Part shown: piece by piece, positions 1-26,338 of the stretch
How positions within the stretch are numbered: position 1 is the stretch's first letter
Layout: each line of letters starts with the position of its first letter
Assembly (NCBI GenBank): GCA_965372795.1
Contig: CBDVDR010000028.1
Coordinates: forward strand, 1 to 27,453
Source: an uncultured bacterium
Lineage (GTDB): Bacteria > Zixibacteria > MSB-5A5 > GN15 > FEB-12
DNA length: 27,453 nt
Direction: 5' to 3'
Made by a program: the position numbers and the translations under genes
The notes under the pieces: generated by a model
Databases searched by the model: none
The model's input: the letters and a program-made list of their open reading frames with translations, nothing else
Told to the model about the DNA's origin: nothing

Positions 1-51
1 AGATGTCGTCGGTTCCCCCCTAAAGGGGATACAAGAATCCTCTCACCCCGA
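1..51 (+). repeat. tRNA-Pro-derived 3' fragment, copy 1 (truncated by window edge), with hairpin insert in T-loop
   Basis: AGATGTCGTCGGTTC-[CCCCCTAAAGGGGATACAA]-GAATCCTCTCACCCCGA; 49/51 identical to 2097..2147; ends like tRNA-Pro (GAATCCTCTCACCCCGA). Confidence 0.85.
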
Positions 52-148
52 TTTTTTTAATTAATATAATCCACTATTACTATTGTTAATTATATCCTAC
101 AATGATATACAAGTACATGAACCTACAATTTTAACTCTATTTAAATTA

Positions 149-177
149 TTGACAACAATATAACATTTACTTAATCT
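149..177 (+). promoter_or_regulatory. sigma70-type promoter of the DUF6044-like gene
   Basis: TTGACA-17 nt-TAATCT about 100 nt upstream of ATG 278. Confidence 0.55.
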
Positions 178-277
178 TCGAAATCAATTATGAAGTTTTC
201 AAATTTTAGAAACTATCTATATCAATAAATAGTCTAATATTTTGTTATAGAGGTGAATGAGGTAACAATTAAGAATT

Positions 278-2011
278 ATGAAATATATACATCAACGTTT
301 TCTCGAATTTTTTGAAGACTTTAGTCTTTACGGCTTCTCCATGTTATTTTTCTTATTTCTATTACCGGTCCTTATTTTGAGAGAGAATGCTTACTTCATT
401 GTCCACGACAACCTTGACTCTCAAGTAGCTTTACGAGCTGTTTTAGCGGCAAGTAATACATTGTTTAACAGTGACGCATTAATAATGCAAATCATGAATG
501 GGCTACCTCGTTCAATGGTTGGCAATACTCTTAATATCACAACTTTTTTATATTCAATATTTCCATCTTCAACTGCTTATTTGAGTAATTACTTCCTCAT
601 ACATATAATAGCTTTTGTAGGAATGTATCTATTAATTTCCAAACATTTCGAAGTAAACAATAAAATCATATCAAGTGGTGTAGCATTTTGTTTTGGTGTG
701 CTTCCTTTTTATTCAATTTTTGGTTTATCTATAGCTGGACTTCCATTACTTGTTTATGCAATTCTAAACATAATAGGCCAAAAAAGCCGAATAACCGATT
801 ATTTTATTATATTTATCTTTGCTCTCTATTCATATCTTTCTCTGGTTGGGTTGTTTATCATTACATCTTTATTTGTTTGGTTCGTTATTGACTGGATAAT
901 TCACAAGCATCCTAATCTAAAATTTGCATACCCTATAGTAATTTTATCTATTACTTATATGATTGTTGAATACAACCTTATTGAAGGAATTTTATATGGC
1001 AATAAATATGTTTCAAATCGAACAGAATTCGCTTACCAATCTATAGCAATACCTTGGCGTCAAGCTGTCACAAAAACAGGATCATTCTTTTTAAGTGGTC
1101 AATATCACGCTTCAAGTTTACATAAGTATATTTTGATTTTGATAGTCCCACTAGCTTTTATAATTGCTACATTCAACAAAAGACGAAAAGAGTTAGTAAT
1201 CATAACTTCAATTCTTTTCATAAATTTAGTCCTGGCAACTATAGCAGGGTTTCAAGACTGGGATCAATTGATACCGATTAAGAGTACAATAAACTTATTG
1301 TATATGTTCCAATTTGGTAGATTTCACTTTCTACATCCACTGACATGGTACATACTTTTTGCAATTTCACTGGGAATGGTTTATCGGTTCAGATTCAAAG
1401 TTTTTAATGGACGATATTTAGTATGTATATTGATATTGTTTCAGGGATTTTATATTCTAACTCATAACAAAGAATTTATGGGATCGGTAAGAATTTTAGT
1501 TAACAATGAAAACAATATTGATGAAACTAAGAACACTATTGCTGGTTTTTATTCTGAGGATTTGTTTCATGAAATAAACGAATATATTGGCAAGTCGAAA
1601 AACTCATATCGAGTCGTTAGCATAGGAATTCATCCAGCCATTTCAGCCTATAATGGCTTCTATACTTTAGATTTTTATACTGAAAATTATCCACTATCAT
1701 ACAAACACCATTTTAGAGAAATAATTGCTGGCGAATTAGAGAAAAGCAAAAGGTGGCGAGATTACTTTGACGGTTGGGGAAATCGTTGTTATGTTTTCTC
1801 AAGTGAACTGAATGATTTCATGACCACCAAACAGCAAGAGGCTAAAATAAAAGATTTTCAATTTAATACCCAAAGTTTTAAAAATATGGGTGGCGAATAC
1901 ATTTTCTCTGCTGTTGAAATTCTTAATAGCAATGAGAATATGCTACAACTAGAGAGAATTTTCACCAATGACAACTCTCCATGGCGCATATTCCTATATA
2001 GAGCATTATAG
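278..2011 (+). CDS. DUF6044/YkoS-like polytopic membrane protein (possible GT-C type glycosyltransferase)
   Basis: 577 aa, many TM segments; motifs HDNLDS, MNGLPR, FQFGRFHFLHP, YRVVSIGIHP..YNGFYTLD, YKHHFREIIAGEL, WGNRCY. Confidence 0.75.
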   Translation: MKYIHQRFLEFFEDFSLYGFSMLFFLFLLPVLILRENAYFIVHDNLDSQVALRAVLAASNTLFNSDALIMQIMNGLPRSMVGNTLNITTFLYSIFPSSTAYLSNYFLIHIIAFVGMYLLISKHFEVNNKIISSGVAFCFGVLPFYSIFGLSIAGLPLLVYAILNIIGQKSRITDYFIIFIFALYSYLSLVGLFIITSLFVWFVIDWIIHKHPNLKFAYPIVILSITYMIVEYNLIEGILYGNKYVSNRTEFAYQSIAIPWRQAVTKTGSFFLSGQYHASSLHKYILILIVPLAFIIATFNKRRKELVIITSILFINLVLATIAGFQDWDQLIPIKSTINLLYMFQFGRFHFLHPLTWYILFAISLGMVYRFRFKVFNGRYLVCILILFQGFYILTHNKEFMGSVRILVNNENNIDETKNTIAGFYSEDLFHEINEYIGKSKNSYRVVSIGIHPAISAYNGFYTLDFYTENYPLSYKHHFREIIAGELEKSKRWRDYFDGWGNRCYVFSSELNDFMTTKQQEAKIKDFQFNTQSFKNMGGEYIFSAVEILNSNENMLQLERIFTNDNSPWRIFLYRAL

Positions 2012-2082
2012 GTTTTTCGTCAATTTACTTAAATTAGTACTTGTATGTACATAATGTGATTGCGAACAGATTCAATAAATAA

Positions 2083-2147
2083 TTGCTTTGGGAGTAAGAT
2101 GCCGTCGGTTCCCCCCTAAAGGGGATGCAAGAATCCTCTCACCCCGA
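2083..2147 (+). pseudogene. tRNA-Pro(UGG) 3' half, copy 2, with 19-nt hairpin insert in T-loop
   Basis: Anticodon arm TTGC-TTTGGGA-GTAA (TGG at 2089-2091), variable loop, GGTTC..GAATCC interrupted by an insert, acceptor 3' strand CACCCCGA; no 5' acceptor strand or D-arm upstream. Confidence 0.8.
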
Positions 2148-9499: not shown

Positions 9500-9551
9500 G
9501 ACTCCACATATTTGAGTCACTTACAGTTATTATTAAGTGATTCGGTTATTT

Positions 9552-9625
9552 GCCCCCGTAGCTCATCTGGATAGAGCATCTGCCTTCTAAGCAGAGGGTA
9601 ACAGGTTCGAGTCCTGTCGGGGGTA
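9552..9625 (+). tRNA. tRNA-Arg(UCU)
   Basis: Cloverleaf: GCCCCCG/CGGGGGT, GCTC/GAGC D-stem, TCTGC-CTTCTAA-GCAGA, ACAGG-TTCGAGT-CCTGT; CCA not encoded. Confidence 0.97.
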
Positions 9626-9691
9626 TTTTTTTTATGTTTTACTTTCGTTAAATATGAAAATAAATAATCAATTTAGTTGAATTTATAATGG

Positions 9692-10471
9692 CTATTTTTC
9701 ATTTGCTTTATGAATTTTCAACTCAACTTCATTTACCCCTTTTGGTGATATTCGTACACGATTTTTACCCTTGTCGAATTCTACTAAACGATCTTTGTGA
9801 AGAGGTGAAAGAATTCGAGTTCGAAACATACTAACACTACTATATTCAATCCAAGTTGATAATTCAGAGTCATTTACCCAGCCATACTCATGATGCAAAA
9901 GAAGTAATGCTTGATTACGTTTGGACATTGATGAATCTAAGACTCTCTTTAAATCCCCAACTTCCCAAATTAAAGGATGTTTTCTCTCAACAATAGTATC
10001 TACAACATCTTGGGCTTCTGCAGTTGTAATATTATGAAAAATACGTATAAGCTCAGCAAGTATCCAACTAGACATGCTATATACAGCAGTAGCATCTAAA
10101 TAATTAGGATCAACTTCACCGCCTACATGCCCTACTCCCCTATTATTTCGAATTTCATACAATATTGGTAAAACGCGTGGAATTAGAATTCGAATACTTC
10201 TATCTCCAATGCGATTAGGATCTTTCGGAGTGTTTTCAAGCGTTTGACAAGCTTGTAGCATATTTTGGGGCTTGGATGGTTTTGAAGGAAATTTGCCACT
10301 TAAATAACCATTAATAATTGAATATACAACTTCACATAACTTACCGCCATTGAGTTCAGACGGTTCCCATTTATGGATTGTAAAATTTAAAGCAATTTCA
10401 TTATAGTTTGCTATTAATGGGTCCCGCAGACCATAAGGAAGACCTGCTAGAATTTTTGAAGTTTCAATCAT
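9692..10471 (-). CDS. HEPN/Abi_C-like protein with C-terminal winged helix
   Basis: RNNRGVGH (R-x4-6-H) preceded by helical GKLCE; C-terminal wHTH-like ..ISPKG. Confidence 0.65.
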   Translation of the reverse strand: MIETSKILAGLPYGLRDPLIANYNEIALNFTIHKWEPSELNGGKLCEVVYSIINGYLSGKFPSKPSKPQNMLQACQTLENTPKDPNRIGDRSIRILIPRVLPILYEIRNNRGVGHVGGEVDPNYLDATAVYSMSSWILAELIRIFHNITTAEAQDVVDTIVERKHPLIWEVGDLKRVLDSSMSKRNQALLLLHHEYGWVNDSELSTWIEYSSVSMFRTRILSPLHKDRLVEFDKGKNRVRISPKGVNEVELKIHKANEK

Positions 10472-11028
10472 TATTTGTCTTCACTCAATTCTTTTACCAA
10501 TTGTCCTCCACGTTTAAGTCCAGGTGACGTTAAAGTCCATCCTCTATCCTTTGTACCTGTAAACTCATTTTTTTTATTTCTCAAGTGTTTTGCGTGATTC
10601 TTAGAATCATAAACTCCCGAAGTCTGACAAAGTTTTCTTGCAGACTCATCAGTGAATTTAGCTTCTCCATTCAATAATAATTGAGCAATTCCTGTAAGAA
10701 TATATGCACTATATGTCTTAGCTTTCTTATCTTTCCCAGGGATTTCTGATGCTATAATTGCAACTTCTCCATCATCAAAATGAAAAACTTGTTGTAGTTC
10801 TTCGAATGAGATTTTGTTTTGTTTCATCCAAGTTTGTGTACGAACAGTGAGATTCTTTACCTCATTATTATCTAAACCGCCATCTATATCATCTACGGGA
10901 GGGGTTATCTTAGTTTCACCAAGTAATGTCATTGTAGCTTGCACAACACGCAGCCTTTCTTCAGATTCAAGTGGTGTTAAAATTTCGATTAGTTTACCTA
11001 CAATTTCAGCAACATTAATTTTTGACAT
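10471..11028 (-). CDS. hypothetical protein with C-terminal winged-helix-like region; partner of the HEPN gene
   Basis: 185 aa, GWTLTSPG wing motif; TAATG stop/start overlap with 9692..10471. Confidence 0.7.
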   Translation of the reverse strand: MSKINVAEIVGKLIEILTPLESEERLRVVQATMTLLGETKITPPVDDIDGGLDNNEVKNLTVRTQTWMKQNKISFEELQQVFHFDDGEVAIIASEIPGKDKKAKTYSAYILTGIAQLLLNGEAKFTDESARKLCQTSGVYDSKNHAKHLRNKKNEFTGTKDRGWTLTSPGLKRGGQLVKELSEDK

Positions 11029-11223
11029 AATTATTCCCTATATAATTAATTATTTGTAACCATTGGACTAAACTCATTCTCCATATGTAAGGAATTTCAT
11101 CACTTCGCAAAATTCCATTTAATTAGTACTTCTAACATATATTATTCAAACAATAATGTCTATAACAATCCCGCATAATTATAGATAAGTTAGTTTAATT
11201 TACTAGAAGAATCAAGAAATAAT

Positions 11224-11252
11224 CCCCCCCCTCCCGCGCCTGAAAGAGGGAA
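11224..11252 (-). terminator. possible terminator of the patatin operon
   Basis: Minus strand TCCCTCTTTC..GGGAGGGGGG (GU-rich stem) followed by ATTATTTCTT, about 60 nt after the stop at 11312. Confidence 0.4.
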
Positions 11253-11311
11253 CGAAACAAATGACTTTCTCTAATTTTTTCTATTCACAATCAACCGTTC
11301 ATTTACAACCA

Positions 11312-13642
11312 TCACTTATAAAAATCGACCTGAACAGTTAGTGTTTTTAAATCATCACCGATCTCTCGGGTGTAATCCTCGTCGACTTTCAGAACTCTGG
11401 CAAACCAATCAAATTCATCTTTAGAAGTTCTGTCAATCCGGGCTGCCAAAACTCCTAATATTTCATAAAGACCCAACCTGCTTGCTTCTTTGGGATTATC
11501 AGCCCCGACAATCAATTCTATTTTATCATCAATGTTATTAAGGAAGCCCCTGTCCATCAGCGCCTGATCCAAATATTTTTCCAGACACATTTCTGACTGG
11601 TCACTTGTTCGTGCAAGGACTGTCCACCTGATTTCTTCGGGAGTAAAGTCAGCTACGAATATAAGACTATCATTGAATTCATTTTCCATTAATTGTTTTT
11701 GTGATTCTTTATCTTTACTGTTTACCCACTTGATGCTTGCCGAGCGAAGTAACACCCGCAGATTTTCAATCACAATAGCACGCCTTTTATTTATATCCTG
11801 ATTTCTTATGAGAACCCTCAAATTTTCAAAATCTGTTTCTTCAGTTATGAAAATGCTTGTGAATGTCACATTTTTTTCACTTGAGAATAAAGACGTAAAA
11901 GGTTTCTTAATTAACCCAACAGCCCGTCCTAAAGTCTTATCAATTAAATTTGGTTTCTTTTTTATAAACTCTATAATTGGAATCTTCAAAACAAACTTTT
12001 TTTGTGCAACCGGATTTATATACCAGGGGCGAGTATTTCTAAGTTTCAAAAAATCAGACAGTAAGCCCGAGTTCTCATGAGACATAATTCGGTCAGGGAC
12101 TATTCTCTCAAAGATATTTTCAGCAGTTTCTATAAGAGCCCATTTAATAAAATTTTCCACCCAATTCAATTTTAGTGAATCAGCCTGATAGAAATTACCC
12201 GCATCTTCGTAAACCTTAGCCAGAAGATTTACGACCACAGTGGTTGCATTCGCATTACTCAGGTATTCATCTTGAACCTCAAAATCACCCAACTCAGGAG
12301 TTGATTTATCCATCACGTTATAAGCGATATCAAGTGCCTGTTCTAATTGATAAGTGACCATGGCCACAGACAAACTGTCTTTACTCCCCTGCTTTGAAAT
12401 CAACAGATTCATCGCCAAATTGTAGTGAAATTCAAATTCATCAAATAAATCATTAAAAAACAGCTTATCAATTTTATCATTGGAAATTCTGGCTCCGTAA
12501 GATTCTATCACCGGAACTAAATTCACCGAATCTTGCTGGCGAGAAAGCAATTCCACCCACTCAATAATCACATCCGGATTCACCCTTGGTTGAAGAAACT
12601 CTGAACTCAGCTTGTAATAGTTAAGCGCTTTGGGAAGGTCTCCCTCACGTTTGTAATATCTGGCTAAACCTGAGGTAAATTCGTGAATTGCCAATCGGGG
12701 GTTTAACTTTCCAAAAGAAGTCGCAAGTTCATATTGATCTTCCATCCAGAAACCATAATCATTTATTTGGAAAGAATTAGAATGACATAAACTAACAAGT
12801 TGAGCCAGCCCGTGTCTGGTATCAGTATTAATAATAAGGGAATCATTTTTAAGCCACTCCAAAAAAGTACTATAGGCTCCTGCCCTAGATACAGAGACAA
12901 CCGTCATAATGACAATATCAGGTTCTACAAATGAGCCATCAGGACTTTGCTGCAGAGCCGCCATGCCTAATAAAACGGCTCCATAAGGTTTACCGAGTAC
13001 AATTAAAGTGTCCATATAATTTGGTATATTCGAATTCTCGTCCCAGGAGTCGGATCGTATAACTCCATCTCGGAAATAACTGTTTTCCGGTTCGGAGAGA
13101 TACCAGGTTTTCAAAAATTCCTTGCTTGAATTATTACTGCCTGTTTCTACTCGTTTAGCATAATTCATCTGGTATCGTCTTGCCTGAACTTTATCCTTTT
13201 TCATAGCATCAAGAAATATCTCTTTGGCAGCATCAGGAGAAAACAGACCCCATTCTTCATACAGCAAGGCAATGTTGTTTTCCACTCCGGCAAAGTTTGG
13301 ACTTAGCAATCTGGAATTTGTATAGGCTTTATACGATTTATTCCGATAGTCAGTTGCCAGGTCTGCATCCTTAATAGAATTAGCCTGTTTTTGAAATGCA
13401 AGACCTTTGTAAAATCTAAAGGCAGCCATATAAGTTGTATCATTATTATCATTTGCAGATTTATAGCCAAGTTCACAATTTGCAACCGCAACCTGAAAAC
13501 GACCCTGTTCAATTGCACTTTCAGTCTTAACTAATAGTGTTTTCAAAAAAGAGCCTTTAACAGCTTCGCTTGCAAAAGTATACGTTGATAGAAAAACACA
13601 GAATACTAATAGAAATAATATATTAATGGAAAATGTTTTCAT
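11312..13642 (-). CDS. large exported TPR-repeat protein
   Basis: Signal peptide from MKTF (AGGA RBS); TPR-like motifs FYKGLAF, NNIALLY, LARYYKREGDLPKALNYY, LAKVYEDAGNFYQA. Confidence 0.72.
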   Translation of the reverse strand: MKTFSINILFLLVFCVFLSTYTFASEAVKGSFLKTLLVKTESAIEQGRFQVAVANCELGYKSANDNNDTTYMAAFRFYKGLAFQKQANSIKDADLATDYRNKSYKAYTNSRLLSPNFAGVENNIALLYEEWGLFSPDAAKEIFLDAMKKDKVQARRYQMNYAKRVETGSNNSSKEFLKTWYLSEPENSYFRDGVIRSDSWDENSNIPNYMDTLIVLGKPYGAVLLGMAALQQSPDGSFVEPDIVIMTVVSVSRAGAYSTFLEWLKNDSLIINTDTRHGLAQLVSLCHSNSFQINDYGFWMEDQYELATSFGKLNPRLAIHEFTSGLARYYKREGDLPKALNYYKLSSEFLQPRVNPDVIIEWVELLSRQQDSVNLVPVIESYGARISNDKIDKLFFNDLFDEFEFHYNLAMNLLISKQGSKDSLSVAMVTYQLEQALDIAYNVMDKSTPELGDFEVQDEYLSNANATTVVVNLLAKVYEDAGNFYQADSLKLNWVENFIKWALIETAENIFERIVPDRIMSHENSGLLSDFLKLRNTRPWYINPVAQKKFVLKIPIIEFIKKKPNLIDKTLGRAVGLIKKPFTSLFSSEKNVTFTSIFITEETDFENLRVLIRNQDINKRRAIVIENLRVLLRSASIKWVNSKDKESQKQLMENEFNDSLIFVADFTPEEIRWTVLARTSDQSEMCLEKYLDQALMDRGFLNNIDDKIELIVGADNPKEASRLGLYEILGVLAARIDRTSKDEFDWFARVLKVDEDYTREIGDDLKTLTVQVDFYK

Positions 13643-13652
13643 ATTCATATTC

Positions 13653-14603
13653 CTAAAATCCATTAGTTGAGATGGTTGAATCGATAGGCACCGATGTGAC
13701 ATGAGATTCTACCCGATCGCCAATAGTTATATCCTGCACATAATCGAAAAGATGTACTTCGGTGGAACTTGAATCTCTTTCCTTAAGCAACTTGAAAATC
13801 TGTGAATAATTTGTTACATCATTCACAGCATCGTGGCGTCCGAAGAAAAATATCACAGAGATCATGTTTGAATCTGCCTCAGCGGGATATTGCAAATCTA
13901 TGATTCCAAGCTTTCCTAAATAATCAAATTTAATCTTAACCTTGGTTTTGTTTACATCAGGTTTTATTTTATCATGAGGCAGATTCAAAGTTATTTTTTT
14001 AGTGAGAGTGTCATCATAAACAATCAATGAGTCTGTTAACGAAATATGACTTAGAATTTCAGAGGAGAAATCTCTTTTATAATCTTCCTTGTTAAAACTG
14101 TTTGACACCTTGTTTCGTATTCGTTCTATCAGTTTAAATTCATCACCTAATTCACTCGGCATATTTTCACCGGAATTATACAATCCGACATCCAGTTTAC
14201 TATCAAGGTCATACCGCTGACGATTGAACCAAAAAACAAGTTTAAGCTTTATTGAACAATAATCCGGAAATCCTTGAATGCATGAATCAATTAAATATAA
14301 TTCAAGGAGACAATTATCATCACTACTATCCAAGACGTTGGCAAAAGAATTCCATTCAAGGAAATCAAGTACATGTAAGGCGGTATCGGTTACAATGCTG
14401 TCCCATATATTTGGCACTGAATCAACTAATATTGATAAGTCGTAATCGACCTCTTTATCGAACAGTTGGAGATTGCATTTAATATCAACGGTTGGCATTA
14501 TTGATTCTGAATGGAGCACTGATGATAACCCCAACATCAGAATTATAATGGTAATCAGCCTAATGCGATTCCTGCTCTTTTTCCTAATTTCCGAGGAAAA
14601 CAT
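13653..14603 (-). CDS. hypothetical exported or membrane-anchored protein
   Basis: 316 aa, basic N-terminus plus hydrophobic helix; overlaps the upstream gene by 20 nt. Confidence 0.7.
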   Translation of the reverse strand: MFSSEIRKKSRNRIRLITIIILMLGLSSVLHSESIMPTVDIKCNLQLFDKEVDYDLSILVDSVPNIWDSIVTDTALHVLDFLEWNSFANVLDSSDDNCLLELYLIDSCIQGFPDYCSIKLKLVFWFNRQRYDLDSKLDVGLYNSGENMPSELGDEFKLIERIRNKVSNSFNKEDYKRDFSSEILSHISLTDSLIVYDDTLTKKITLNLPHDKIKPDVNKTKVKIKFDYLGKLGIIDLQYPAEADSNMISVIFFFGRHDAVNDVTNYSQIFKLLKERDSSSTEVHLFDYVQDITIGDRVESHVTSVPIDSTISTNGF

Positions 14604-15669
14604 AATGTATATCCTTATTCTTTATCAGCAATGTTTCTGAATTCTCGATTCTTGGTTCCTGATTTGGGAGCTTTGATGTTAGCACAATAGAAATCTTATC
14701 TCCAATTTCGTAACCTGAACAACCCAACATATAAGGTTCTTCCAGCATCATTTTGATGTTTTCTTTAATATCATTTTTCTTATTCGGATTAGTTTCAATC
14801 ACTTGGGGAGGGAGCTTTTTTATTAATCCACGAGCAGCATCATTTACAATTTCATTTAATTCAATTTTATTAATGGCATATGGTATTAGCGGACTCTCTG
14901 TACCGGTAAACACGATCTGTTTAAATAAATTCATTTTAGTATCAAAAACTGTCTCGCCGCTAATTGATAATGTATATTGCCTCCCGCTGGTATCGTTTAC
15001 AACTGGTAATCGATTAAATAGTTTGTCCGAGGGAACTATACAAACAAGATGAAGTTTTTTCTTTGTAAGATCATCAGGAATATTTAGCTTCACAACCGAC
15101 CCCGATTTCAGATGAAGATTATATGGTTCATACAAAGGTAACAAATCACGCATAACCGTTAAATTAGCTCCGTCACCTTCAGAATTCCATGGGTAAAACC
15201 AGTGGAGAATTCTCTTACCTTCCCTTTTAGTGAGTTCTTTAACTGAAATTGAATCCATATAAAAAGGGGCTGACTCTCTTTTCATTGTAACAAGGAATTC
15301 AGGATTGTCAGCTGAGTTATCATCGTATACCAAATACAACGAACTGACCATCATGTTAGCAAGAAACACTACGATAAAAATAATCATGAATACCCAGGAA
15401 GTTTTCCCCGAGACCATGATATTGTTAATTATATTCTTATTTAATTTCTTATCGCTTTTATCAATCAACCAGGGGATTAATCGCAAAATTGTCAAAATAC
15501 CTACAGTTCCAAAAGCTGTCACATTGCGATTTAGTTCAGTGTAAAGATGATTATTGTAAAATAGTAAGCAGGTTATCGTAACAACAATCAAGGTCAGGAT
15601 ATTCCAGATCAAAGCGAGCTCAAGTTTTTTTGGTTTTTTGATTTCATCCTCAGGTAATTTCTCATTCAT
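14584..15669 (-). CDS. hypothetical membrane protein (3 N-terminal TMs plus extracytoplasmic domain)
   Basis: 361 aa; AAGGAG RBS. Confidence 0.72.
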   Translation of the reverse strand: MNEKLPEDEIKKPKKLELALIWNILTLIVVTITCLLFYNNHLYTELNRNVTAFGTVGILTILRLIPWLIDKSDKKLNKNIINNIMVSGKTSWVFMIIFIVVFLANMMVSSLYLVYDDNSADNPEFLVTMKRESAPFYMDSISVKELTKREGKRILHWFYPWNSEGDGANLTVMRDLLPLYEPYNLHLKSGSVVKLNIPDDLTKKKLHLVCIVPSDKLFNRLPVVNDTSGRQYTLSISGETVFDTKMNLFKQIVFTGTESPLIPYAINKIELNEIVNDAARGLIKKLPPQVIETNPNKKNDIKENIKMMLEEPYMLGCSGYEIGDKISIVLTSKLPNQEPRIENSETLLIKNKDIHYVFLGN

Positions 15670-15707
15670 CAGTTCCAGTCTCCTTTTATGAATGCATTAA
15701 TCAATTT

Positions 15708-16808
15708 TTATAAAAGGCTGCGTATAAAAGGATCGTCTGTATCCAACTCGCCAAACTCCATTGGATTTCCATCTTCAAAGTATTTCTCAGCATCCAGTCT
15801 GCCATTTATAAAATAAGTGTACATTTCTTTAGGATCGAACTCCAAAGAGGCTGACATCGCCCTCGAAGGACTAATCACATACAAGCCGTTTGCCTGATCA
15901 GAAGTGAATGGAAAGACATTATCAAGCAGCTTAAGTAATTTTTGTTTTTGAATAGCATTCAATCCAAAATCATCGGTCAATTGAGTTAACTCTTTTCTTG
16001 CCCGCCCAAGTCTGGAATAAGCTACGCCGCGAAACAGATCGCCACGTTCGACTTCATTCAGAGTAGAATCAAGCACCCACTTCAAAACCGACAGGATATT
16101 GACATCATCAGGTGCTTTTGTTCCACCCCAATCAGTCTCATTAAATTTTGGTTTATGGGTTGAGATCGCCCAGACTTTAGTGGCACCATTTCTATATGCG
16201 TATGTGAGCGGTAAGAACTCTTTAACCCCGCCATCATAAAACAGATCTTTCTCATTCGGATGCCCGGGTTCGTCTTTATAAACCTGAATCGGCTGACAAA
16301 ACACCGGTTCCGATGCTGAGGCAAGCACACCTCTCACATATGTTTCCGGATTTTGATAATCAATCCCTAAATCACCACTGGACATAAATTGTATTTTACC
16401 TGTTCGAGTATTAACCATGGTGACAACGCACAATTTAGCCTTATTGCGAATTAATTCGAGTTTACCATTTTCAATGTAGTAAAGTTTCAAGAGCTGATAG
16501 AGCGGGTCCATATCAGCCTGAACAAGAATAGGAGTGCTAAAAATAAGACTCGCAAGTTTTCCAAACCAGGAATTGTTTAAGATATCGTTATTGGTTACAC
16601 CGACATAGCTGTCACGAAGATCATATCGTTCTCCCAATAGGGCTGGACCGGCGACAAGTGATCCGGTTGAAGTACCAATCGCAAAATCAAACGGAGCTTT
16701 TTCGGCGTCATTTGTCGCTGCATGCTGCCGTACTTTGAGCATATGATAAACAACTCCTGCCGTAAAAGCACCCTTGGCTCCCCCTCCGGATAAAACTAAA
16801 GTTTCCAT
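15708..16808 (-). CDS. patatin-like phospholipase
   Basis: LVLSGGGAKG, GTSTG nucleophile, ASAS, DGG catalytic Asp; no signal peptide. Confidence 0.93.
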   Translation of the reverse strand: METLVLSGGGAKGAFTAGVVYHMLKVRQHAATNDAEKAPFDFAIGTSTGSLVAGPALLGERYDLRDSYVGVTNNDILNNSWFGKLASLIFSTPILVQADMDPLYQLLKLYYIENGKLELIRNKAKLCVVTMVNTRTGKIQFMSSGDLGIDYQNPETYVRGVLASASEPVFCQPIQVYKDEPGHPNEKDLFYDGGVKEFLPLTYAYRNGATKVWAISTHKPKFNETDWGGTKAPDDVNILSVLKWVLDSTLNEVERGDLFRGVAYSRLGRARKELTQLTDDFGLNAIQKQKLLKLLDNVFPFTSDQANGLYVISPSRAMSASLEFDPKEMYTYFINGRLDAEKYFEDGNPMEFGELDTDDPFIRSLL

Positions 16809-16828
16809 AATTTTATTCCTTCCGTTTG

Positions 16829-17269
16829 TTACTGAATACCAATTTGGATAGCATGATTAAAACCGCATTTTATTAATTCGGCTTTTTTAGCGTCTTGCAG
16901 GGTGATGGTTAAATCCGATAATCGAAGCTCCGCATCGGCATGTTCATCCTGATATCTGGTCCAAAGATCAATGGGTGCTGTACTCTCTTGTAACTTTTGT
17001 TCAATACAATCAACGGTTGCACAGTTATTAATATCATCATTCAGAATCACAAAATTTTCAAGGCGATCCCGTTGTAAACTCGTATCAGTCGGAGTTTGGA
17101 CCCACAGCCGAACGGCATCGGTGTGATTAAGACAATACTGGCGCTCGACAACAAGAGGTATGCGATTCTCATCCTGACAACAAAACTTCGTCCCTCCGTT
17201 ACAACCAATTATGAAAACGGCTAAGAGAGCTATCAGATACAGCCGTTTAAACTGTATTAATTCTCTCAT
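16829..17269 (-). CDS. cysteine-rich lipoprotein
   Basis: GGAGG RBS before ATG 17269 (MRELIQ); lipobox IIGC; several additional Cys. Confidence 0.7.
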   Translation of the reverse strand: MRELIQFKRLYLIALLAVFIIGCNGGTKFCCQDENRIPLVVERQYCLNHTDAVRLWVQTPTDTSLQRDRLENFVILNDDINNCATVDCIEQKLQESTAPIDLWTRYQDEHADAELRLSDLTITLQDAKKAELIKCGFNHAIQIGIQ

Positions 17270-17319
17270 ATAAGACCTCCATTTAAAATGATTAATAGTT
17301 ACCATTAAATGAAATTGAT

Positions 17320-25087: not shown

Positions 25088-26338
25088 ATGAAAAATATTT
25101 TTAAAATTATATATGTTTCGATTTTTGTCTTGAGCATTAGTTCCTGTTCAAATTCAGTTAACTCCGCCCCTGGTGATAACCAGAACTCAAACTTAGTGCC
25201 GATTAATTTGACCGAGATCGAGAAATCAATAGCCGCCTCTGCTAATGATTTTGGAATTGAAATTTTCAAACTATCAAATTCCGATGCCGGTAATATTTTT
25301 ATCTCACCAATTTCTATATATTACGCTCTTGGGATGACCTATAACGGAGCCTCAAATGCGACCCGGGATTCTATCGCTATGACTTTAAACCTCGAGAGCT
25401 TTGATTCCGAACAAATTAACTCATCGTTTCAAAACCTGACTAATTCTTTAACCAATCTTGATTCATCAATTATTATTGATATCTCAAACTCTCTATGGCT
25501 TAGGGAAGGATTTAACATTAATCCCGACTTTCAACAAATTATTCGTAACTATTTTGTCGGAGAAGTCTCCTCAGTCGATTTTAATCAAGAGGCAGCTGCC
25601 GATTTAATCAATAACTGGGTCTCAGAAAGCACCAACAGCAAAATAACTGGAATCGTTTCTCCCCCAATTGATCCGGCAACAATCATGTTTCTTCTAAATG
25701 CCGTTTATTTTAAAGGCAATTGGGCGACTCCTTTTGATACCTCGCTTACCTTTGAAGAAACCTTTTATGGCGGTTCCGGTGAAATTGAATGTGAAATGAT
25801 GCATAAACAGGCTTCGTTTTCATATTATGAAAACGACCTGTTACAAATTGCAACCCTCCCTTATGGTAATGGCTACTACGAAATGATCGTAATTCTCCCT
25901 TCTAAAGATGTTAATATGTCAGCTTTGGTCGGAAATTTTAGTTATGAAGAACTATCAAATTGGCAAAATTTAATGACAGAGCAGGAAATTCGGTTAGCAA
26001 TCCCAAAATTTAAATTTTCCTATAAAGCTAATCTCGATGAATTTCTAAAAATAATGGGTATGGAAGTCGCTTTCAACCCACAAACGGCTGATTTTGGTAA
26101 TATTTTGGAAAATTCACCACTTTTCATCCAAAATGTCTTACATAAAACTTTCGTACAGGTTGATGAAATAGGTACTGAAGCGGCAGCTGTAACTTCGGTA
26201 GTTATCGGAACCACCTCGGTGGGACCTCCCATTAAAGAGATGCGAATAAACCGTCCTTTTATATTTCTTATTAAAGAAAGAACTACCGAATCAATTTTAT
26301 TCCTTGGTTCGATAAATAATCCCGTTTGGGACGAATAA
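25088..26338 (+). CDS. serpin family lipoprotein
   Basis: Lipobox ISSC; NIFISPISI, LLNAVYFKGNW, hinge EIGTEAAAVT, RINRPFIFLI. Confidence 0.95.
   Translation: MKNIFKIIYVSIFVLSISSCSNSVNSAPGDNQNSNLVPINLTEIEKSIAASANDFGIEIFKLSNSDAGNIFISPISIYYALGMTYNGASNATRDSIAMTLNLESFDSEQINSSFQNLTNSLTNLDSSIIIDISNSLWLREGFNINPDFQQIIRNYFVGEVSSVDFNQEAAADLINNWVSESTNSKITGIVSPPIDPATIMFLLNAVYFKGNWATPFDTSLTFEETFYGGSGEIECEMMHKQASFSYYENDLLQIATLPYGNGYYEMIVILPSKDVNMSALVGNFSYEELSNWQNLMTEQEIRLAIPKFKFSYKANLDEFLKIMGMEVAFNPQTADFGNILENSPLFIQNVLHKTFVQVDEIGTEAAAVTSVVIGTTSVGPPIKEMRINRPFIFLIKERTTESILFLGSINNPVWDE

Follow-up and report, generated by a model that had tools for sequence, protein, structure and literature searches.

Displaced tRNA-Pro fragments with a 19-nt T-loop insert border an integrase-less islet in a Zixibacteria genome

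Integrated elements that lack an integrase of their own are known from the accretion of integrative and conjugative elements (ICEs) in Streptococcus, where cis-mobilisable elements (CIMEs) are bounded by attachment (att) sites and accumulate in tandem. Elements that integrate at tRNA genes (tDNAs) have a well-known frame: fragments of the tDNA are displaced, crossover falls in the T region and several elements may accrete in tandem at one tDNA. Parts of the Islander report (PMC4383910) and of a study of tRNA gene fragments (PMC9897764) treat the T-loop/T-stem region as a crossover subsite. Here we analyse a locus of this general kind at the start of a 27,453-nt stretch of DNA (contig CBDVDR010000028.1 of assembly GCA_965372795.1, here C28; hereafter “the window”) from an uncultured Zixibacteria bacterium, whose genome we call G000. 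Two displaced 3′ fragments of tRNA-Pro(UGG), each with a 19-nt insert in the T loop, bracket a 2.1-kb islet with one gene. On balance, we think it probable that the fragments are att-type remnants of tRNA-Pro around an acquired islet, and that the 19 nt are a stray unit of a family of mini-hairpins, which was then duplicated.

Like the tRNA-integrated islands treated in parts of the two sources above (PMC4383910, PMC9897764), the locus combines an intact tDNA with cognate fragments in the same orientation and a repeat that starts in the T region. It also has the tandem units and foreign base composition of tRNA and transfer-messenger RNA (tmRNA) islands, including those at ssrA of Dehalococcoides as portions of PMC3146451 present them. 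Unlike such islands, it has no integrase, its cargo is a single-gene stretch of 2.1 kb, and it includes 67-nt units with no cargo as well as the 19-nt insert in the T loop. A full-text literature search, covering main texts only, returned no description of hairpin inserts in the T loops of displaced tRNA fragments.

The window opens with AGATGTCGTC-GGTTC-CCCCCTAAAGGGGATACAA-GAATCCTCTCACCCCGA at positions 1-51 (fragment C), and a second fragment (fragment D) closes the islet (Table 1). The order GGTTC, 19 nt, GAATCC occurs at 11-40 (GAATCC at 35-40) and at 2107-2136, just as an earlier note on this DNA had described it; the 30-mer across the insert has two matches in the window and none in 100 shuffled sequences. 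The alignment places the insert between C56 and G57 of the T loop. Once the 19 nt are deleted, GGTTCGAATCC is left, which is the T loop of the intact tRNA-Pro(UGG) of the same genome, and the note was equally right that the T stem of the fragments, GTCGG/CCTCT, has two mismatches (the intact gene has GGAGG/CCTCT). The 3′ 17 nt are the same as in the tRNA in every copy. To the left of the insert, fragment D agrees with the tRNA at 26 of 29 positions. Fragments C and D differ by two substitutions (6 T/2102 C and 31 A/2127 G), and D has the longer 5′ part.

The note had further read the insert as a CCCC-TAAA-GGGG hairpin. The hairpin is present and weak: folded as DNA with ViennaRNA, the 19 nt reach -3.1 kcal/mol and the fragments -4.7 to -5.2 kcal/mol, which is no better than chance against dinucleotide shuffles (z -0.17 to +0.84). 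The alternative pairing of AGGGGAT with ATCCTCT, given as 7 bp, can form with six Watson-Crick pairs and one G-T (counted by eye), but ViennaRNA chose another fold. Examined as a miniature inverted-repeat transposable element or as a palindrome-associated transposable element derived from IS200/IS605, the insert has one weak hairpin and neither an inverted terminal repeat nor a junction duplication. A reading as an integron attC site was considered by eye only, and no GTTRRRY core is seen at the junction.

The note had counted the insert in “both copies,” and two do lie in the window, but the genome has four. The others are on a second contig, C17, at C17:78697 and C17:78764 (units A and B), where the order is intact tRNA-Pro, 15 nt, fragment with insert, 15 nt, fragment again, contig end. 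The intact tRNA-Pro(UGG) at C17:78596-78671 (ARAGORN) scores 68.5 bits with Rfam and belongs to a set of 45-46 tRNAs in which Pro(UGG), Pro(GGG) and Pro(CGG) occur once each. Tandem Repeats Finder reports an array with a period of 67 nt and 2.1 copies up to the end of C17, which begins exactly at GAATCC, that is, at G57 of the tRNA-Pro T loop. Each 67-nt unit, found at least twice in tandem, consists of the tRNA 3′ end, the 15-nt spacer, the tRNA-like AAGATGTCGTCGGTTC and the 19-nt insert. At the 5′ side, D reaches into the anticodon stem, and units A and B begin past it, with AAGATG. The end of C17 and the start of the window overlap by 42 identical nt, and these ends are on no other contig, so the assembly must have broken inside the array. 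Judged from this overlap, fragment C appears to be the last unit of the array that begins on C17.

None of the copies is recognised as a tRNA. In the window, ARAGORN called only a tRNA-Arg(TCT) and nothing at 1-60 or 2080-2150; Rfam, at E-values up to 1, scored only intact tRNAs, no fragment and no intron family. The copies have no 5′ acceptor strand, no D arm and no complete anticodon arm, and a scan of the fragments for promoters and terminators gave no signal above shuffles. Known bacterial tRNA introns are group I introns in the anticodon loop, and the 19-nt T-loop insert is not at a known intron position. The mini-intron reading of the note, and a reading as an altered tRNA, thus fail: all copies are 3′ fragments, and a normal tRNA-Pro(UGG) lies 15 nt upstream of the first. 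We conclude that the features are displaced tRNA-Pro(UGG) 3′ fragments that form att-type direct repeats, not tRNA genes.

Units A to C and fragment D share the diverged GTCGG and the insert and differ by two substitutions, so a single insertion event followed by duplication suffices to explain them. Within this genome there is no sign of repeated targeting; the four copies go back to one event. The tRNA 3′ end with its flank and the fragment 3′ end with its flank are direct repeats, and unequal crossing-over or slippage between them would amplify exactly the unit that is observed. The array probably arose in this way.

The islet between fragments C and D consists of an AT-rich leader and one gene, which encodes a membrane protein of the DUF6044 family. 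Its G+C content is low, 30.1% over window positions 53-2096, where the flanks have 36.5-38.6% and the whole genome 38.0%. Pfam detected no integrase or other mobility gene in the islet, and no integrase in the window. A search for related loci with the DUF6044 protein gave one irrelevant match, and blastn searches of phages and plasmids gave none. Examined by the logic of Islander, the tRNA-Pro locus shows the hallmark of integration at a tRNA gene, a complete tDNA with a cognate 3′ fragment behind it on the same strand, and the repeat spacing across the islet, 2,096 nt, is just over the 2-kb minimum of that method; the 67-nt units are below it. The four PF00589 matches of the genome are on C6, C10 and C12, and no integrase lies in the interval. 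The 2.1-kb islet bracketed by C and D works like an integrase-less, att-bounded islet, and because the defining integrase is missing we do not file it as a classical island. By analogy, it resembles CIMEs in its att-type repeats, in a recombinase that would be supplied from elsewhere and in the tandem build-up at one site; unlike CIMEs, it has no identified partner ICE or integrase, and its mobilisation is putative.

We compared this locus with 60 relatives. The 30-mer across the insert, with up to three mismatches allowed, is absent from all of them, and the right-hand 17-mer GAATCCTCTCACCCCGA occurs in 13 of the 61 genomes (G000 included), with two copies each in G001, of the same genus, and G021, of the same family. 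In both, behind tRNA-Pro come 1.6-1.7 kb that hold one gene, and then a fragment, which reads GTTCGAATCC without interruption and has no 19 nt. In G001 this gene is for a protein of the Fic family; in G021 it encodes a membrane protein of 482 aa. The latter is unrelated to the DUF6044 protein (BLASTP E-value 0.84), and the gene on the right flank in G000 is likewise not homologous to that in G021. These inserts indicate that tRNA-Pro is a recurrent landing site for single-gene inserts. Among the tRNA-Pro fragments of G000, G001 and G021, the 19 nt appear peculiar to G000.

A related sequence was found at the same loop position in one other genome. An exact scan with GGTTC and the first 15 nt of the insert, across ~185,000 species with one genome each, gave a single match outside G000, on contig C203 of G229, a genome of the same order as G000 and of family f3. 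This is a recurrence within the order, not across phyla; the EF-G copies of the two genomes are 54% identical. Positions 521-537 of G229:C203 are identical to the first 17 nt of the insert, and the identity extends to 23 bases when the preceding CGGTTC is counted. The context in G229 is again a displaced tRNA fragment. In detail, the contig has a tRNA-Thr(CGT), a 36-nt spacer and GCGGTTC followed by 69 nt and GATTCCGCTCGGTGGCT; the next Thr unit has the spacer and GCGGTTC followed by CCCCCTAAAGGGGATAC, GATCCCGCT and further bases (85 nt in all) and again GATTCCGCTCGGTGGCT. The 17 nt are thus in one Thr tandem unit and not in the neighbouring one. The same contig holds a tRNA-Phe, followed by TGTCCGCAGTTC, a 51-nt stretch that begins with TCCCTAAAGGGATTTCG, and AATTCTGCGGGGTGGCA; the junction of the tRNA-Phe fragment reads GCAGTTC and continues with TCCCTAAAGGGATT. 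The arrays of the two genomes are built alike, and a hairpin stands directly after TTC in the Pro, Thr and Phe contexts. None of the 59 other relatives of G229 shares its array.

An exact 20-mer is expected by chance about once in 596 billion bases, and since the G229 match lies in a tRNA fragment, at the corresponding place in its loop, a chance 20-mer would be unlikely to land there. When the 19 nt were aligned locally with the 85-nt G229 insert, none of 2,000 shuffles reached the score. Wider scans gave little else at tRNAs. The 19-mer without its first G had one match in metagenomes, at an unrelated GC-rich gene junction. In viral sequences, the Phe-like 18-mer had 13 matches and the 16-mer had 16 matches, none of them beside a tRNA. 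In genomes, the 16-mer CCCCTAAAGGGGATAC occurs at 95 loci, and the 80 examined gave 83 matches, among which only the one in G229 is beside a tRNA. A CCCC run lies 4-6 nt upstream in 27 of these 83 matches (by eye), mostly in Bacteroidota. A Bacteroidetes metagenome-assembled genome (MAG; PMXD01...) holds the 16-mer at eight loci in an inverted doublet with arms GCCCCTTCCGTCCCCTAAAGGGGATACC, similar to doublets of repetitive extragenic palindromic sequences (REPs), which are called REPINs. A link of this palindromic repeat to a REP-associated tyrosine transposase (RAYT) was considered and not supported, as a copy lies near only one of eight Y1 loci. A pattern with a relaxed loop matched twice, in G229 and in an Actinomycetota MAG (contig CAVWWU010000010.1, minus strand, 501-529), where GGTTC, CCCCAATTGGGGGATACGC and GATTC lie 25 nt behind a tRNA-like 3′ fragment that ends in CCA; this site may be a chance match or another case.

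Short units of similar build are present in many copies in a sister family, f14, whose 15-nt module is GTTCACCCTGAAGGG with GG directly before it. We searched 285 genomes of the phylum with GTTCNCCCTAAAGGGATT, the junction of the Phe type, at no more than one mismatch. Matches occurred in 12 genomes, namely G229, G273 and 10 of the 20 f14 genomes, with up to 29 copies per f14 genome; the reversed control had two matches in all 285 genomes. The f14 unit, (G/A)TTCACCCTGAAGGG, is 15 nt long and forms head-to-tail runs of one to four, and GG precedes all 28 of the 28 distinct runs. The units sit inside larger palindromic repeats, and the elements have no Rfam match. One f14 version ends in TTCACCCTGAAGGGGATACAG, compared with TTCCCCCCTAAAGGGGATACAA in the window; the ending CCCTGAAGGGGATACAG resembles the insert. 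Among the 29 f14 loci examined, none holds or adjoins a tRNA. In G292, REP-type hairpins (GTTTCGGGGT...ACCCCGAAAC) flank a gene for a 213-aa Y1 protein, which is RAYT-like; among the four hairpins listed, two hold two modules in the loop and two hold none. Across f14 (G278-G297) we also observed a dispersed palindromic repeat of ~110 nt, as read from the contexts, with one to four of the units inside it, and at least eight units in a row in one genome, beside a masked stretch. Compared with REP/REPIN sequences and RAYTs as parts of two papers describe them (PMC3116915, PMC3337134), the insert is likewise a short hairpin unit, with related modules that are multi-copy in f14 and in some cases lie within REP hairpins on either side of a RAYT-like gene. 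Unlike REPs in these accounts, it occurs at one G000 locus (four copies), forms no inverted doublet, is shorter at 15-19 nt than typical REPs and shows no clear association with a RAYT.

These observations can be joined in the following scheme. Small DNA without an integrase has lodged at the T loop and 3′ end of tRNA-Pro, as at five other tRNA genes of G000 described below, and each event restored the tRNA gene and left a useless fragment behind. The 19 nt would be one unit of the ~15-19-nt hairpin modules, GG-(G)TTC-N-CCC(C)-TRAA-GGG(G)-AT, that are present in this bacterial class. This unit would have entered at GGTTC of T-loop DNA, either in a non-functional fragment or in the islet's own copy. 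GGTTC, universal in T loops, also forms the left junction of the module, and this double role would account for the precise placement of the insert. The unit may have been brought in by an enzyme whose insertion point follows GG(G)TTC, or by a template switch at the shared GGTTC. Since the fragment was disposable, the insert could have persisted there, and duplication or unequal crossing-over would then have brought it into all four copies. If such inserts last only in spare fragments, this would account for the intact gene that always lies close by. Template switching is familiar from quasipalindromes and from microhomology-templated insertions, in which the nascent strand may switch templates. 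By this analogy, the shared GGTTC could place the insert exactly with no need for a T-loop-specific enzyme; unlike in such cases, there is no donor copy in G000. As a broader and more tentative proposal, it is possible that undescribed modules of ~15 nt, GG-(G)TTC-N-CCC-TRAA-GGG, insert after GG(G)TTC in single-stranded hairpin loops.

Several points weigh against this scheme. Among the genomes scanned, exact matches of the 17-mer in a T loop occur only in G000 and G229. The putative likeness of the insert to the f14 module requires one gap and two substitutions. The full f14-type element has no match in G000, where the hairpin occurs at the tRNA-Pro locus only; as there is no donor or active family in this genome, the insertion would have to be old or to have taken place while the islet was in an earlier host. 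No enzyme could be linked to the insert. Y1 genes are present in 20 of 20 f14 genomes regardless of the module, and Y1_Tnp is absent from G229. G000 has three Y1_Tnp matches, none near the tRNA-Pro locus, and no similar hairpin is found on the contigs that hold them. Finally, the origin of the cargo-less 67-nt units is a reconstruction, and their count is at least two up to the assembly break.

The earlier note had named a tiny palindromic element that targets T loops as one of three possibilities. The recurrence of the 17 nt in a tRNA-Thr fragment of G229 and the multi-copy modules of f14 agree with part of that idea, and the descent of the four G000 copies from one event does not. In its strongest form, the insert would be an active, enzyme-driven, tiny mobile element specific for tRNA T loops, moved in trans by an HUH/Y1 enzyme (IS200- or RAYT-like) or by a small nuclease. 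We consider this unlikely. On its own premise that hits in working genes are lethal, such an element would be visible only in spare fragments, and it would account for three independent T-loop contexts with the hairpin right after TTC (Pro in G000; Thr and Phe in G229). Candidate enzymes exist, as G000 encodes, besides its Y1_Tnp proteins, three mini GIY-YIG proteins, one directly after a tRNA-Gln fragment (none is at tRNA-Pro), and the RAYT-like gene of G292 is flanked by hairpins that include modules. However, G229 has three such inserts and no Y1_Tnp, Y1 genes do not track the presence of modules in f14, and the absence of tRNAs from the f14 loci indicates that the modules are not tRNA-specific. 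IS200/IS605-type elements need two ends, and the 19-nt unit, with its one weak hairpin, does not have them; in G000 the hairpin is found nowhere beyond the copies derived from one event.

The note had also offered a remodelled recombination site, which came close for the fragments, as these are att-type direct repeats around the islet. That the 19 nt themselves are a working recombination site of the islet, with a hairpin or an inverted repeat (AGGGGAT/ATCCTCT, 6-nt spacer) beside the crossover core GAATCC...CCCCGA bound by a recombinase encoded elsewhere, appears quite unlikely. The insert does exist in two versions (units A to C versus D, with the two substitutions), found at the right end of the cargo islet and in the cargo-less units. 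AGGGGAT pairs with ATCCTCT at 6 of 7 positions, versus 5 of 7 for the native GGAGGTT (by eye), and fragments of tRNA-Lys and tRNA-Ser-CGA also carry a small hairpin, CAGG(C/T)TWTGCCTG, at the T-loop border. Against a recombination site stand the tRNA-Pro fragments of G001 and G021, which lack the 19 nt, and the G229 tandem unit that lacks the 17 nt beside one that has them. The 6-nt spacer between AGGGGAT and ATCCTCT, ACAAGA, is not in the tRNA and therefore cannot be an overlap region with attB. Neither the islet nor the window encodes an integrase, the PF00589 matches of the genome being elsewhere, and the one island that has an integrase, at tRNA-Thr on C6, uses a different type of site, a repeat of nearly the whole tRNA.

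As the picture that would make the insert a one-off mutation in a dead att remnant, the note had named findings that are largely those we made: copy 1 proves to be a fragment, the genome has a normal tRNA-Pro(UGG), and the insert is at one locus of G000 and in none of the 60 relatives. We nevertheless regard it as improbable that a single random insertion, or the collapse of a repeat unit, produced the insert and that its likeness to the G229 and f14 sequences is coincidental. The single locus fits this view, as do the chance expectation of about one exact 20-mer and the unrelated setting of the metagenome 19-mer match; in addition, both ends of the insert (CCCC... and ...TACAAGA) are similar to those of the spacer region of the array, which has a 33-nt sub-period. 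What speaks against coincidence is the G229 match: it has 23 identical bases, occupies the corresponding T-loop position in a tRNA fragment and belongs to an array of like build. Lastly, it is hardly credible that the copies work as RNAs, be it as a tRNA-Pro with an intron or an expanded T loop or as a tRNA-like regulatory RNA, given that beyond their tRNA-identical 3′ 17 nt they lack the arms listed above, have a T stem broken by two mismatches, elicit no call from ARAGORN or Rfam and no promoter or terminator signal above shuffles, and coexist with an intact tRNA-Pro(UGG).

We return to the reading of the fragments as remnants around acquired DNA, with which the wider genome of G000 can be compared. 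Five more of its tRNA genes (Gln, Ser-GGA, Lys, Ser-CGA and Leu) are followed by 1.6-7.5-kb stretches without an integrase (Table 1). At all five loci, the stretch is closed by a copy of the 3′ part of the tRNA, with identity that starts from (T)TCGA of the T loop. At Gln (~85 nt) and Lys, the closing copy extends past the tRNA into a copy of its native downstream flank; the extension is partial at Ser-GGA and absent at Ser-CGA and Leu. The cargo is varied and includes a peroxiredoxin-like gene, a pair formed by a cyclase/TPR protein and a cNMP-binding partner, and DUF488 together with a dual-OB protein. The four tyrosine-recombinase matches of the genome all lie away from these five sites.

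Table 1. Positions of the tRNA-Pro fragments, insert copies and islet in the window, and of the five further tRNA loci of G000.
Feature	Position	Strand	Remark
Fragment C, displaced tRNA-Pro(UGG) 3′ fragment	1..51	+	5′ side cut by contig start
Left junction GGTTC of fragment C (T-stem end and first half of T loop)	11..15	+	alignment
19-nt insert of fragment C, CCCCCTAAAGGGGATACAA	16..34	+	weak CCCC/GGGG hairpin
GAATCCTCTCACCCCGA, direct-repeat core	35..51	+	positions 57-73 of intact tRNA-Pro
Islet body, AT-rich leader and one gene	52..2082	+	
Cargo gene, DUF6044 family membrane protein, 577 aa	278..2011	+	PF19510, E 5e-178
Fragment D, displaced tRNA-Pro(UGG) fragment, anticodon stem to discriminator	2083..2147	+	
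19-nt insert of fragment D, CCCCCTAAAGGGGATGCAA	2112..2130	+	G at 2127 is the single difference from the other copies
tRNA-Gln-CTG locus	G000 C1:65302-70434		
tRNA-Ser-GGA locus	G000 C3:71372-82016		
tRNA-Lys-CTT locus	G000 C3:120060-127255		two fragments
tRNA-Ser-CGA locus	G000 C13:47048-52519		two fragments
tRNA-Leu-TAA locus	G000 C18:4305-9172		

Other small features were noted at these loci and elsewhere in the genome. The mini hairpin CAGG(C/T)TWTGCCTG lies at the 5′ border of the T loop in the tRNA-Lys fragments and in the tRNA-Ser-CGA fragment that is 90 nt behind the gene; at this position, then, spare fragments of two different tRNAs hold a small hairpin of a second type. An 89-aa GIY-YIG gene (G000:C1:67836-68105, minus strand) is ~200 nt behind the displaced tRNA-Gln fragment, and a stretch of ~170 nt surrounding that fragment is found again around the one of tRNA-Ser-GGA. 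A palindromic repeat of ~32 nt, with core CGCGTTCGCG and flanks GGATCCC/GAGGATGACA, is present in four exact copies and one variant (G000:C12:59327-59930, C16:16648 and C9:118060); three of the copies surround a mini GIY-YIG gene on C12. At G000:C6:75954-91193, two copies of tRNA-Thr(CGT) are 15 kb apart, with a 343-aa tyrosine integrase beside the first. This element looks like a classical island, and its repeat spans nearly the whole tRNA.

Further along the window, the tRNA-Arg(TCT) at 9551-9626 is followed by seven minus-strand open reading frames (ORFs) at 9692-17305. One of the seven has a Pfam match, to a patatin-like phospholipase (15708-16808), and the other six, one of them of 796 aa, match no Pfam family. 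At 25088-26338 lies a gene for a bacterial serpin (416 aa; PF00079, E-value 7e-109).

What looked like an interrupted tRNA is thus a stack of att-type remnants, and six tRNA genes of G000 have small integrase-less islets behind them, bounded by repeats that start in the T loop. Annotation can profit from this, as can the mapping of genes gained by horizontal transfer. Taken together, the hairpins of G000 and G229 and the modules of f14 point to hairpin loops in DNA as landing places of a very small repeat unit. If this holds, the locus would offer a testable case of minimal mobile or templated insertion, and would explain why the inserts are seen only beside an intact gene copy. Should the broader proposal also be true, the targets of the modules would include the loops of REPs, larger palindromic repeats and the T-loop DNA of tRNA genes, where insertion would be tolerated only in spare fragments. 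The modules would then be among the smallest mobile DNA units known, and would pose a hidden mutational hazard for tRNA genes.

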